Shown here in pieces: positions 11,118 through 37,242 of a stretch of 64,000 bases of DNA; positions within the stretch are counted from its first letter, which is position 1; each line of letters opens with the position of its first letter. Under the pieces are notes generated by a model. That model was not told the origin of the DNA and made no database searches. It saw only the letters and a program-made list of their open reading frames with translations. The position numbers and the translations under genes are program-made. This stretch comes from an uncultured Methanomassiliicoccales archaeon (GTDB lineage: Archaea; Thermoplasmatota; Thermoplasmata; Methanomassiliicoccales; UBA472), in contig OY968769.1 in the NCBI GenBank assembly GCA_963695345.1, forward strand, positions 1,280,001-1,344,000. Reading direction: 5' to 3'.

Positions 11118-11871
11118 GCGAAACAACCTCTCGTTATTCCAGACCCAGCTCCCGTGTCGCCTTTTTTCATTGCCTGATCGCCGATCTTCCAGGCATTGTC
11201 CCTCGATTTGTTCGAGATACAATTTAAAACGGTAAGATCAACCGTCATTGTGGGTTCTACCGCTACCGGGAAGGCCATCGAAACGCCCTTTCCTTGCTTG
11301 TCATCTTTCCATGAATATCTCATTCTCATGCTTGTTCAGCTCCTCTATTTCGATACGTTGCACTAGTGCAGACTGAATTGAGACAGGTACCACAGCGATT
11401 GGATCTTTGTAGGCCATGCCTCATTTGTAGACGGCCGGAAGAAACGCCTATTGCGCATACAGCCTGAACATCTGGAATCAAAAATGGATCCTTAGATGTT
11501 ATTTTGCAACCTAGCCGACGGAGTTACCGTTCCGACGACAGTGCGAACAATGCTCCTGACCGGAGCTCTTCCGTTTTGCCCGCTCATGATTAGACAATTC
11601 CTTTATCGAATATAAACAAAATTATATAGAAAATACTAATCTTAATAACAACTGAATAGCATTTTGTTCTTGAAAATATGCTTTTTATCGATATTAATTT
11701 AACAAACGAAATGCCTAACTTTTTTTATACGTTCCTTTGCCCGAACCATTGATCGACCACAACCGAACCTCTAACTTTGTCACAACTGTGATAATGTGAG
11801 CCGCTGTCTGAGGTTATTTTCACGGACGGCGGAAGGATCGGCTTATTTGCTTCAATCGGATAAAATGAGAG

Positions 11872-11943
11872 TGCGGCCACCGGGATTCGAACCCGAGTTC
11901 GAAGCTTGGGAAGCTTCAGTCCTAACCACTAGACTATGGCCGC
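11872..11943 (-). tRNA. tRNA-Gly(CCC)
   Basis: GCGGCCA/TGGCCGC acceptor stem, anticodon arm GAAGC-TTCCCAA-GCTTC, TTCGAAT T-loop. No intron and no encoded CCA. Confidence 0.97.
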
Positions 11944-34305: not shown

Positions 34306-35922
34306 TCAAACTGAGAAGTCCAACATCTCCGCCAGGGTCTCCCCCACCGAGCGATCGTCCATCGAAGCGATGAATTCCTCCTTGGACCGGTAGGGACGAT
34401 GGACGAGGATGTTCGCCGCCCGCTTCTTGCCGACGAAGGGGAGCGAGGCTATCGCCGCGAGCGAACATTTGTTGATCCGGAGCGGGTGCTCCACGGCCGT
34501 CAGGCTCCGGTAGCCGTGACCGCTCACCACCGCGTCGACGAACTTGCCCAGTTCGATAGGATAGGAAAAACCCACCAGCAGAGGATAGGTACCGATCTGG
34601 CGGCCGAAGGTGGTCTTACCCTCGTTCATCTCGGTGTACACCCGGCGAAGGACGGTCCCCAGCGGCGCGACCCGTTCCAGCATCGGCCGGTCAATGGTCT
34701 CCCGGACCTTCTGCTTGAATTTGACGAACTCGGAATGGGAAACGCCCTGGTCGAAGGCCCGCCGGATGCCGATGACCTGCCGGATGTTGATGCGGCGGAC
34801 CAGGAGGCCCCTTCCAAGCACGGAGCTGAGGAAATCATAGTCCAACTGCAGGGTCTTCTTCGTCTCACCGTCCAGACCGATGATGAAGTTCAGACCCGGC
34901 AGCACCGCGGGTAGGCCAGTCGGTCCACGTTCCCGGCCGATCTGATTGATCAGCTCGATAGCCTGCATCACCTGATCCGCTGAGGCGTTCAGGTTGTTCG
35001 CGGAAACGACCGCCGGATCGGCGCTCTCCATGCCCAATGCCAGGACGTTTCCGCTCGTACAGTGGCGCACTATGCTTCGGAGTATCTGCCCCGACTCTTC
35101 CGGATGCGCCGCGATGACGGCGGGATTGGCATTGTCCAGGTGGAGCAGGTCCACCCCGAGCGAGGCCACTCCGGACAACAGTTCTTCGATCGCTTCCGGA
35201 TCTGGCCGGGGGGTCTCCGTCCCGTCTAGATGCGCGTGATATGAAATGAAGCAGGTTTGCGCCCCAAGGCGGAAATTGCGTACCCCCAGGTCATGCAGTC
35301 TCTTGCATTCGGCTACGATGTCCTGCGGTTCCCGGCAGACCGGGACGCCTTTTAGCGGTTCCACGCAGAAGGAGCAGCCACCGCTCTTGTATCTCACACA
35401 CCCGCGATAGGTCTCGATCTCGGCAACCAACGGCTGGGGGAAATCCCGATGTTTGGTGACGATGTCCGCCCCTATCATGAGCCACCGGTTCCACTCCTCG
35501 ACCGTTCTCCATCGATTTGTTGGGACGCCGCCATCGATAAAGTCGAACAGGCAGCTCGCGGGGTCACGCGTGGCGATGATGTCGAAAAGACCGGAGGTCT
35601 CGATGTCCTTCTCCATCGTCAGAGGCCCTCCGAGGATCTTGATGCCGCCCATCAAAGGCAGGAATCTCTCGACCTCCCGCCTTGATGCCGGGGAAGCCCT
35701 GATGTACCTGCCGGGGACGGCGCTCCCCGTAAGGAAGATCACGACATCTGCCTTCTCTGCAAGCCTTCCTTGCCGCAGATCATCGATGGTGCGGTAGCTG
35801 GCTTCCGCACCGGCGTCCTTCGCCGCACCATAGGCTGCCCTTACCAGCGGATGGATATAGGGAGGTACTCCAAGTGATCCCGGCTCATCGATGTATCCAT
35901 CGATCACTGCGACAAGCGTCAT
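34306..35922 (-). CDS. Radical SAM protein with TRAM and C-terminal helix-hairpin-helix domains
   Basis: DGY.DEP..LGVPPY, ETYRGC-X7-CSFC, GRQ.GTYP, LPFVGKKRA. Confidence 0.88.
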   Translation of the reverse strand: MTLVAVIDGYIDEPGSLGVPPYIHPLVRAAYGAAKDAGAEASYRTIDDLRQGRLAEKADVVIFLTGSAVPGRYIRASPASRREVERFLPLMGGIKILGGPLTMEKDIETSGLFDIIATRDPASCLFDFIDGGVPTNRWRTVEEWNRWLMIGADIVTKHRDFPQPLVAEIETYRGCVRYKSGGCSFCVEPLKGVPVCREPQDIVAECKRLHDLGVRNFRLGAQTCFISYHAHLDGTETPRPDPEAIEELLSGVASLGVDLLHLDNANPAVIAAHPEESGQILRSIVRHCTSGNVLALGMESADPAVVSANNLNASADQVMQAIELINQIGRERGPTGLPAVLPGLNFIIGLDGETKKTLQLDYDFLSSVLGRGLLVRRINIRQVIGIRRAFDQGVSHSEFVKFKQKVRETIDRPMLERVAPLGTVLRRVYTEMNEGKTTFGRQIGTYPLLVGFSYPIELGKFVDAVVSGHGYRSLTAVEHPLRINKCSLAAIASLPFVGKKRAANILVHRPYRSKEEFIASMDDRSVGETLAEMLDFSV

Positions 35923-36025
35923 GCTAGAGCGGCACTCCAAAATAAATAAAATAAGCCTGCTGCCCTTGCAGCCAGGCGGTCTAGGTATGCAACGATAATA
36001 TTCAAAGTCGTTTCTTGGGTCAGCC

Positions 36026-36292
36026 TCAGATGAGGCCGACCTCCACCGTCTCAACGTTCTGGATGCCTTCTACTGAGCGGTAGACTTCTTCCAGCTTCTC
36101 GATCAAGCCCCCGGAGTCCAGCATGATCGTGGTTACTTCGAGCATGCTCAATCCAAAGGCGAGCGGCTTGACCTCGGACCGGACGACCTTGACGCCTTCT
36201 GGGACGATGGTCGGGATCTTCTTCGAGAGCCCCTCTAGGTCGTAGTCGGTTGAATCTGGCATTAGGTGATGAACGGCGGCGACCTGTCCCAT
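36026..36292 (-). CDS. ef1b: Elongation factor 1-beta
   Basis: MG.V....MP.S, PLAFGL..L motifs. Confidence 0.92.
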   Translation of the reverse strand: MGQVAAVHHLMPDSTDYDLEGLSKKIPTIVPEGVKVVRSEVKPLAFGLSMLEVTTIMLDSGGLIEKLEEVYRSVEGIQNVETVEVGLI

Positions 36293-36471: not shown

Positions 36472-36713
36472 AGCAATCGCTCGTGCGAGATTAGACTTCT
36501 TGTATAAATATATAAGGGGGTTCCGAAGACCGCAAATAATCCTTTAGAACATCGCAAACAAATATGTTCTCATCTGAGATTACGGAAATGATAGTATATC
36601 GATACATGACAGGTTGATGACCTCTCCAATAATCTCCGTGTCCTTGAGTTGAAGAGAAAGATTAAATAACGGCACCGGATTCTCTCGGCTCTGCACGCCG
36701 GCATACCTACCAA

Positions 36714-36846
36714 GGGCCTGTAGCTCAGCTAGGTAGGACGTTTGGTCACAAGCGTCCCTAGAAAGAGCAGCTGGCTTTTAACCAGCTGGCCAAGGGTTCG
36801 AATCATCCACGGTAACTCCGTGATGTCGAAAATCCCTTCAGGCCCG
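36714..36846 (+). tRNA. tRNA-Lys(UUU) with two non-canonical introns
   Basis: Removing 36735-36763 and 36803-36832 gives GGGCCTG TA GCTC AGCTAGGTA GAGC A GCTGG CTTTTAA CCAGC TGGCC AAGGG TTCGAAT CCCTT CAGGCCC G. Confidence 0.9.
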
Positions 36847-36978
36847 CTTGCGTAGGCAAAGAAACGACATGGGAGATCGAAAAGTGAACATCCGTTTCGA
36901 GAGATTCCGATGCATTTTTATAAGGCCGCTACTTAGTATGAAAGAAGGTCCGGGCTTAATTTCGTCGAGGTGATAGCT

Positions 36979-37242
36979 ATGGTCGACACTGTACAGTTTA
37001 ACGTCTTAGAGCACGACCTCGTGCCAGAGCATTATTTGTTATCGGACGAGGATACGAAGAAGGTACTGGCCTCTTTGAGGATCCAGAAAGACCAGTTGCC
37101 AAAGATCCGAAAGGGCGACGCCTGCATCAGGCTTCTGGAGAACATTGAAGGCCCTATCACCGAGGGTAGAGTGGTCAAGATTGTGCGCCGGAGCGCGACC
37201 GCTGAGACCACCGTTGCCTATCGCTTAGTTGTCAGAGGGTGA
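36979..37242 (+). CDS. rpoH: RNA polymerase subunit H (Rpo5)
   Basis: H.LVPEH, QLPKI...[11 protein letters not shown]....YR.V. Confidence 0.96.

Follow-up and report, generated by a model that had tools for sequence, protein, structure and literature searches.

A tRNA-Lys(UUU) gene with two predicted, relaxed bulge-helix-bulge introns in a Methanomassiliicoccales archaeon

Introns at 20/21-like and 59/60 positions, relaxed bulge-helix-bulge (BHB) motifs and up to three introns per tRNA are known from Thermoproteales, M. kandleri and ARMAN-2 (PMC4033280, PMC5829648, PMC3239211, PMC8450103; all papers are cited here from excerpts). Breadth of the tRNA splicing endonuclease EndA has been tied to loops, namely the crenarchaea-specific loop (CSL, or L1) of (alpha-beta)2 enzymes, the ASL (L2) loop of epsilon2 enzymes and the L3 loop of certain alpha4 enzymes, and the homomeric euryarchaeal EndAs are regarded as strict-BHB enzymes (PMC5829648, PMC3239211, PMC4033280). 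A review table of 2014 gives euryarchaeal multi-intron tRNAs only for M. kandleri and M. thermautotrophicus (PMC4033280). The excerpts of a comparative genomics study of Methanomassiliicoccales mention only a group II intron (PMC4153887), and in the library searched we found no literature on tRNA introns in this order, nor on introns of this kind in Thermoplasmatota or any alpha'2 lineage (the excerpts of PMC9071458, PMC3239211 and PMC5829648 do not mention them); GtRNAdb and the supplements of the tRNAscan-SE 2.0 paper may already list such genes. Here we describe a locus at 36714-36846, on the plus strand of a 64,000-nt stretch of an uncultured Methanomassiliicoccales genome, which is very probably a genuine tRNA-Lys(UUU) gene with one intron in its D-loop and another in its T-loop. 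That stretch, hereafter the window, is 1280001-1344000 of a single 2,561,992-bp contig with 56% G+C (genome G000).

Gene structure and splicing motifs

The gene is divided into three exons. Exon 1 (36714..36734) supplies the 5' strands of the acceptor and the D-stem and the D-loop to position 20, and is followed by intron 1 (36735..36763, 29 nt) at tRNA position 20/21. Exon 2 (36764..36802) runs from the 3' strand of the D-stem through the anticodon arm, the variable loop and the 5' strand of the T-stem to position 59 of the T-loop, where intron 2 (36803..36832, 30 nt) lies at position 59/60. Exon 3 (36833..36846) supplies T60, the 3' strands of the T-stem and the acceptor, and the discriminator G at 36846, with no CCA encoded at its 3' end. 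The cloverleaf requires the removal of both introns: when the three exons are joined in silico, the 133-nt precursor becomes a 74-nt product that ARAGORN calls tRNA-Lys(ttt), with 7/4/5/5-bp stems that are fully paired, while removal of intron 1 alone yields no ARAGORN tRNA and removal of intron 2 alone yields a false Val call. The anticodon loop CTTTTAA, with anticodon TTT, is uninterrupted, and there is thus no intron at 37/38. On the unspliced window, both ARAGORN and Rfam at its gathering score missed the gene, and each found a tRNA-Gly(CCC) at 11871-11943 as the sole tRNA. The minimum free energy of the pre-tRNA is -63.5 kcal/mol, compared with -38.4 +/- 4.0 in 300 mononucleotide shuffles of the same sequence (z = -6.2).

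In both introns, two 3-nt sites lie a 4-bp helix apart and each would be cut after its second base. The central helix of motif 1 is formed by CTAG in the D-loop exon (36729..36732) and CTAG in the intron (36758..36761), the latter followed by the AAA site at 36762-36764; that of motif 2 is formed by TTCG in the T-loop exon (36797..36800) and CGAA in the intron (36827..36830). The bulges are GT|A and AA|A in intron 1, around an inner stem GGACG/CGTCC, and AA|T and AA|T in intron 2, around an inner stem CATC/GATG, one bulged C, and ACGG/CCGT. Because the interior of intron 1 is paired end to end in all 33 distinct sequences from the order (described below), its 5' site GT|A is a true 3-nt bulge. 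Its 3' site AA|A faces A36727 and G36728 (A14 and G15 of the precursor), so that a 3x2 internal loop closed by the D-stem is formed, again in 33/33 sequences. For intron 2 the sides are exchanged: here it is the 3' site AA|T that forms a true bulge, with the central helix on one side and the T-stem on the other, and the 5' site faces T36826 (U113) in a 3x1 loop. Across the 33 sequences this 5' site is strict in one, a 3x1 loop in 16, and carries one or two more unpaired or mismatched positions in the other 16. Neither intron has the strict helix-bulge-helix-bulge-helix (hBHBh') form; each is a relaxed BHB motif, consistently with one strict and one relaxed side. An alternative register for motif 1, with a 5-bp helix CTAGG/CCTAG and bulge TAG as in the minimum free energy fold, was rejected, as cuts placed by the same rule do not match the intron-less orthologs described below.

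The initial annotation had proposed a tRNA-Lys(UUU) gene upstream of rpoH with introns at 20/21 and 59/60, each motif relaxed on one side, no canonical 37/38 intron, and a structure that standard annotation may miss. Its coordinates are confirmed and its spliced 74-mer is a flawless cloverleaf; the one-sided relaxation is borne out by the geometry in the 33 distinct sequences, and the uninterrupted anticodon loop and the failure of both gene finders agree with the remainder. The product of 36970-37239, downstream of the tRNA gene, matches Pfam RNA_pol_Rpb5_C (RpoH), which places rpoH as expected. One detail needs correction: intron 2 has the inner stem that was described, with CATC/GATG as its first part, and G36822 had been counted twice, so that the second part is ACGG/CCGT rather than CACGG/CCGTG.

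As far as the screens show, 36714-36846 is the only Lys(UUU) gene of the 2.56-Mb genome. ARAGORN, run on the whole genome with introns allowed, reports Lys(CUU) at 1000810-1000887 and no Lys(UUU); coordinates outside the window are given here as contig positions. The Rfam tRNA model returns 39 matches above its cut-off in the whole genome, among which the only lysine tRNA is Lys(CUU), and it gives the present locus 18.3 bits (E = 0.5). A SPLITS-like screen was also made, in which 4-bp helices with 3-nt sites and short flanking helices were enumerated, the putative introns excised and the products passed to ARAGORN. Its pair-spliced version covered 117,521 candidates from the 15% of the genome outside open reading frames (ORFs) of at least 150 codons and returned the tRNA-Lys(UUU) locus as the only new two-intron tRNA, with a sensitivity limited by the fact that 34 of 41 known tRNAs lie wholly inside the searched 15%. 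The single-spliced version covered 749,370 candidates genome-wide, and its only convincing new gene is a tRNA-Arg(UCU); the other new loci from the screens (e.g. 904508-904709 and 2300609-2300740) look by eye like coding sequence or variants of known tRNAs. No intact Lys(UUU) gene was thus found elsewhere by ARAGORN, Rfam or the BHB-splice screens. AAA accounts for 128 of the 689 Lys codons in window ORFs of at least 300 codons and for 6 of 66 in the rpoB-like ORF. By standard wobble rules, the reading of AAA needs a tRNA with a UUU anticodon, and since AAA codons are in use, such a tRNA is needed here.

Conservation and distribution of the introns

The locus was compared by BLAST to 41 related genomes from seven families of the order (f1-f7). 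Nearly the full precursor was matched, introns included, with identities of 95-99% within the genus and of 76-85% for families f1 and f3-f5. The match of f2 and f6 ends after the T-loop, and f7 shows two exon matches that abut. Both introns are present at the same sites in 36 genomes of f1-f6, which hold 33 distinct sequences. The 5' part of the gene follows one scheme in 36/36, namely acceptor, D-stem, AG, 4-bp helix, GT(A or T), interior, 4-bp helix and A(A or G)A, and so does the 3' part, with T-stem, TTCG, A(A or G)N, interior, YSRA, ANT and T-stem. The f7 genes (L043-L045) are uninterrupted 74-nt tRNA-Lys(UUU) genes, whose D-loop AGCTAGGTA and T-loop TTCGAAT are identical to those of the predicted product and which carry exactly the predicted junction sequences GCTCAGCTAGGTAGAGC and GGTTCGAATCC; exon 2 of the G000 gene matches exon 2 of these genes. 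Because the D- and T-loops of the intron-less f7 genes equal the predicted cut products, the junctions are fixed independently of the BHB rule. When the BLAST comparison was widened to 151 genomes of the order, f1-f6 gave contiguous matches from position 1 through intron 1 in 83 of 86 genomes, and the three unmatched genomes, all of f1, are 81-93% complete. Matches were also obtained in 56 of 64 f7 genomes, and among the f7 matches listed these cover only exon 2 or the 5' end; 11 f7 matches fall outside the rows listed, and the intron-less state of f7 is confirmed by sequence only in L043-L045.

The 33 distinct order sequences were aligned (alignment A1) and scored against a structure comprising the tRNA stems, both central helices and both inner stems. 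Paired cells reach 94.9%, compared with 88.5% in shuffles (0/500 reach the observed value) and 30-50% with slid partners; pairs changed on both sides number 16, compared with 10.2 in shuffles; and the covariation score is 0.209, compared with 0.095 in shuffles (0/500) and at most 0.077 with slid partners. Significance is overstated by the shuffles, as the sequences are related; sliding the partners leaves relatedness intact and gives the same picture. Double changes occur in 3/3 variable pairs of the intron 1 inner stem and in 6/8 pairs of the intron 2 inner stem. Within the order, the central helix of motif 1 is an invariant CTAG/CTAG, and that of motif 2 varies by a U-A to U-G change in 8/33 sequences. 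Deeper relatives have the motif 1 variants CCAG/CTGG (f21, f8), GTAG/CTAC (f16) and ATAG/CTAT (f54), and the motif 2 variant TCCG/CGGA (f13) in place of TTCG/CGAA; in each of these, a change in an exon loop base is matched by one in its intron partner. Across order, class and phylum the exons do not vary, and compensatory changes preserve the helices of the introns. In the two f13 genes (L066 and L067, from G156 and G168), the T-loop is TCCGAAT, with C at the near-universal U55 and a matching intron strand CGGA; if spliced as predicted, the mature tRNA-Lys of these organisms would be without U55.

To extend the comparison beyond the order, a covariance model (R1) was built from A1. In the class search of 151 genomes it found a match at E <= 0.001 in 150/151 genomes, a tally that includes the unpublished G238, and the genomic span of full-length matches ranges from 74 nt to 233 nt. 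The intron state was read in 24 genomes from 20 families of the class: introns at 20/21 and 59/60 are present in 12, at 20/21, 37/38 and 59/60 in six, at 20/21 and 37/38 in one, at 20/21 only in one and at 59/60 only in two, and none is present in the last two (f24 and f19). The intron-less genes of these two families (L079 in f24 and L080 in f19) are 74 nt long, with D- and T-loops that are close variants of those of the predicted product. A phylum search with R1 matched 41/151 genomes at E <= 1e-16, and several families gave no match at this threshold (e.g. 0/9, 0/9, 0/9 and 0/15), which leaves out intron-less genes (scores of about 1e-14). Eleven loci outside the class were picked from the matches at E <= 1e-16, and ten of them are tRNA-Lys(UUU) genes, all with at least one intron: three with 20/21 only, three with 59/60 only, two with 20/21 and 37/38, and two with introns at all three sites. 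The remaining locus resembles an Arg(UCU) gene and has its intron in the T-loop. From the distribution over order, class and phylum, together with the compensatory helix changes, we infer that the introns are old, selected for a BHB-like fold and repeatedly lost, and not recent. The two-intron arrangement would on the same sequence comparisons be ancestral to much of the phylum, with repeated losses.

Splicing enzymes and alternative explanations

The genome has one EndA gene, which lies outside the window (G000:C1:1264534-1265550); no second EndA gene was found in the genome, the other matches being weak and below threshold. The protein has an N-C-N-C layout: a single ORF of about 350-383 aa contains the Pfam domains tRNA_int_endo_N and tRNA_int_endo twice each, by which the enzyme is classed as one of the alpha'2 (two-repeat) type, predicted to act as a homodimer. 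Among solved structures, the fused alpha-beta enzyme of M. kandleri (5x89) comes closest over the full length (E = 1.2e-39, residues 30-368), followed by the A. fulgidus alpha'2 enzyme (2gjw, 1r0v); T. acidophilum 2ohc matches only the last domain (query residues 297-382). Repeat 2 aligns a Y..H..K pattern with the solved chains, presumably the catalytic Tyr, His and Lys, and the His is lacking from the corresponding position of repeat 1 (TNLWVLAV versus HSEYLVHAV). In the catalytic repeat, the alpha chain of A. pernix (3p1z_B) differs from the G000 enzyme by an insert of 10 residues, at a place which we take to be that of the CSL. Because this insert is absent and repeat 2 is nearly equal in length to the M. 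jannaschii chain (167 versus 168 residues), none of the described specificity loops is apparent in the aligned protein. The ligase RtcB is encoded at 2337987-2339294 (601.5 bits).

Given these enzymes, we propose that the gene is transcribed as a 133-nt precursor whose D-loop and T-loop each hold a protein-spliced BHB-type intron. In each intron, four exon loop bases would pair with four intron bases to form the 4-bp central helix, flanked by two 3-nt sites that would each be cut after the second base; the single alpha'2 EndA would make all four cuts and RtcB would ligate the three exons. Such an EndA would have to accept sites opposed by one or two unpaired bases (3x2 at the 3' site of intron 1, mostly 3x1 at the 5' site of intron 2).

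Several points weigh against this proposal. According to the literature, alpha4 and alpha'2 EndAs need a strict 3-4-3 hBHBh' motif (PMC3239211, PMC5829648), and when the alpha'2 EndA of A. fulgidus was given M. kandleri pre-tRNA-Glu, the release of its relaxed 20b/21 intron was not clear (PMC5829648). The minimum free energy fold of the G000 precursor pairs A88 with U113, which makes a 5-bp helix and leaves a 2-nt bulge at the 5' site of intron 2. Genes for Ile(GAU) and Ser(UGA) were missed by ARAGORN, the Rfam model and the BHB-splice screens alike, and the screens are accordingly not exhaustive. Six RNA-library runs contain part of the window, and the contigs of the four metatranscriptome runs that we examined show only the unspliced form (one, for example, spans 36710-37212 into rpoH), with no joint at either intron. 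Because such libraries seldom capture mature tRNA and may contain DNA, these contigs neither support nor refute splicing. One short contig begins at 36763, beside the 3' site of intron 1, which says nothing about cleavage, since RNA ends are not visible in contigs. A further contig (X17, record 6) has different tRNA-like sequence around exon 2 and was set aside as the intron-less tRNA of another organism. Nevertheless, the sequence comparisons indicate that 36714-36846 is functional, with cleavage predicted at these sites in vivo.

The unspliced contigs are also what a decayed, non-functional tRNA gene with two insertions that are never removed would produce. We consider such decay highly improbable, as no other Lys(UUU) gene was found in a genome that does use AAA codons, and as invariant exons and compensated intron helices extend across the order, class and phylum. 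Recent gain of the introns within the lineage, which the initial annotation had offered beside a broader EndA as its explanation, is just as hard to credit: nothing was found in its favour (the G000 introns are short and of similar size), the same sites and flanking helices occur in six of the seven families sampled in the order, introns are present in 22/24 class-level genomes read and in most of the class families read, as well as in other classes, and the intron interiors have diverged via compensatory changes. The premise from which that annotation started, that homomeric euryarchaeal EndAs favour strict BHB motifs, agrees with the excerpts of PMC5829648, PMC3239211 and PMC4033280, and the EndA, for which it had offered greater breadth as one option, is typed here as a single alpha'2 enzyme without the CSL insert.

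With the gene taken as real, the relaxed sites can be reconciled with this enzyme in two ways. An ordinary EndA of the strict alpha'2 type may simply tolerate one or two opposing unpaired bases, in which case there is no conflict with the rule that enzyme and motif co-evolve. This is plausible, if somewhat short of probable: the 3-4-3 spacing is kept in 36/36 homologs, one site per intron is always a strict bulge, the enzyme has no extra loop compared with the M. jannaschii and A. fulgidus chains, and f7 keeps a similar EndA without the introns. Such tolerance sits less easily with relaxed sites that are conserved as relaxed (33/33 for the 3' site of intron 1, and strict in only 1/33 for the 5' site of intron 2), with the A. 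fulgidus result cited above, or with the absence of the 20/21 intron from 5/5 genomes with a degenerate first repeat. The last observation comes from a survey of Pfam scores for the C-terminal domain of EndA repeat 1 in 16 genomes. This domain is complete in G000 (70.4 bits), scores 50.9-77.4 bits in eight of eight genomes with the 20/21 intron and 42.0-61.1 bits in three intron-less f7 genomes, and is not detected in two f24 genomes (G281 and G239); it scores 19.8 bits in one genome of f19, 13.2 bits in one of f25 (G183) and 12.1 bits in one of f15. The five genomes with degenerate or missing domains (G281, G239, G162, G183 and G208) are without the 20/21 intron, as judged by sequence in f24 G281, f19 and f15, by a 74-nt span in f24 G239, and in f25 G183 by a weak R1 score (E = 1.4e-13, no match at 1e-16). 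The f15 genome (G208) keeps only a strict 59/60 intron.

It is therefore also conceivable, to be held rather more tentatively, that the alpha'2 EndA is genuinely broader without a CSL, ASL or L3 loop, possibly by way of its complete, beta-like first repeat, and that this lets relaxed motifs persist. The scores just given fit this account, as does the fact that the best whole-length solved relative is M. kandleri 5x89 rather than the A. fulgidus enzyme, and the f24 enzyme (of the Thermoplasmatales-like G281) has deletions both in repeat 1 and in the N-domain of repeat 2. It has to contend with f7, where repeat 1 is intact and there are no introns; with a sample of 16 genomes that are few and related and perhaps reflect only two independent losses; with G208, which is 64% complete and has its EndA at a contig end; and with the loop-less M. 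kandleri enzyme, which is itself reported to be inefficient on relaxed motifs and to have released the relaxed 20b/21 intron only slowly (PMC5829648). We regard the association between the integrity of EndA repeat 1 and the 20/21 intron as a lead and not a result. A less likely extension is that the Thermoplasmatota alpha'2 EndAs with a complete beta-like repeat 1 form a distinct group that cuts relaxed BHB motifs without loops, the 20/21 intron predating the radiation and being lost where the repeat degenerated, as in Thermoplasmatales-like lineages. If true, this would break the rule that a specific loop gives broad specificity, and would provide a natural series of enzymes and substrates for mapping the determinants of EndA specificity.

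Other tRNAs and comparison with described systems

Non-canonical intron sites were found by the screens in two tRNAs of the genome only, Lys(UUU) and Arg(UCU). Two introns interrupt the tRNA-Arg(UCU) gene at 1705441-1705575 (plus strand): one of 26 nt lies at the canonical 37/38 position, and one of 31 nt (1705528-1705558) lies at 59/60, where the Lys gene also has an intron. The motif of this 59/60 intron is strict hBHBh', and it shares its TTCG/CGAA helix and AAT/AAT bulges with the Lys gene. Spliced in silico, the Arg gene yields a 78-nt tRNA-Arg(tct), a second case that speaks for the proposed reading of the Lys gene; Rfam gives the Arg locus only 19.6 bits. Nearby, tRNA-Trp(CCA) at 1705751-1705925 (plus strand) has an intron of about 99 nt with box C/D-like motifs (GTGATGA ... 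CTGA), which we take to resemble the guide-RNA intron of euryarchaeal tRNA-Trp. ARAGORN also calls Trp(CCA) at 2430787-2430884 (plus strand); by the BHB rule and the discriminator, this gene is a tRNA-Arg(CCG) with a 23-nt intron at 37/38, whose central helix has an A.C mismatch beside the 5' bulge. Read in this way, the intron would be another imperfect motif that the same EndA must handle. Further mis-assigned ARAGORN intron calls are 1462723, which is Val(GAC), 1718806, which is Ser(GGA), and 1691675 and 1079266, which are CAT tRNAs.

Along with Ile(GAU) and Ser(UGA), tRNA-Pyl was not located by ARAGORN, the Rfam tRNA model or the BHB-splice screens, and a regular-expression scan for the anticodon arms of these three gave noise only. 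The three genes may be more heavily disrupted or atypical. Two sets of candidates were tried and rejected: a 19-nt Ser-like match at 505644 is followed by no tRNA-like sequence, and about 12 isolated T-arm-like 11-15-mers gave no tRNA upon local exhaustive splicing. Orphan 3' parts of tRNA-Leu(TAG) and tRNA-Leu(CAG), at 99081-99133 and 1490907-1490962, are 96-98% identical to the intact genes, which lie 0.6-2.5 kb upstream, and look like attachment-site duplications left by integrated elements.

Around the Lys gene itself, 20-40 nt between the tRNA and rpoH (36846-36900; GCTTG.GTAGG ... ACATGGGAG) are conserved across family f1 (L008-L038). This spacer holds no ORF, as an in-frame stop follows, and it may be a processing signal or an rpoH leader. 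The ORF after rpoH is an unsplit, rpoB-like gene of 1199 aa. Upstream, a 582-aa ORF on the minus strand (34306-36054) matches Radical_SAM weakly (30.8 bits) and a helix-hairpin-helix domain at its C-terminus.

The intron positions and motifs described here are themselves already known, and the interest of the locus lies in the mismatch between relaxed introns and enzyme type: in a lineage with a loop-less alpha'2 enzyme, an essential single-copy tRNA has retained two introns throughout the phylum, both of them relaxed and at non-canonical positions. This means either that alpha'2 enzymes are more tolerant than has been assumed, or that the clade has gained breadth by another route. There is a practical side as well, in that genomes annotated by ARAGORN or thresholded Rfam would seem to be without tRNA-Lys(UUU), in this organism and in many of its relatives; tRNAscan-SE 2.0 may well find these genes.

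Among described systems, M. kandleri pre-tRNA-Glu(UUC) is the most similar, being a euryarchaeal multi-intron tRNA with a relaxed D-loop intron (20b/21) at nearly the same position (PMC5829648). The M. kandleri EndA is like that of G000 in having no CSL or ASL loop, and its fused form is the best solved match. In contrast, it is built from two subunits as (alpha-beta)2, whereas the G000 enzyme is one two-repeat polypeptide; the second M. kandleri intron is at the canonical 37/38 position, whereas that of G000 is in the T-loop; and the M. kandleri arrangement belongs to one species, whereas that of Lys(UUU) is conserved across the phylum. ARMAN-2 shares the T-loop insertion point 59/60, with a motif relaxed in one case, but its EndA is a three-unit epsilon2 enzyme with a specificity loop, which the alpha'2 enzyme of G000 does not have. 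Thermoproteales and other Crenarchaeota likewise have up to three non-canonical BHB introns per tRNA, missed by simple finders (PMC4033280, PMC8450103); they differ in their (alpha-beta)2 EndA with CSL and in having many such tRNAs, compared with two in our screens of G000. Finally, the alpha'2 EndAs of A. fulgidus and T. acidophilum are two-repeat single chains whose second repeat aligns well with that of G000, but the T. acidophilum enzyme matches in the last domain only, and in the G000 enzyme the C-terminal domain of repeat 1 is retained in full.

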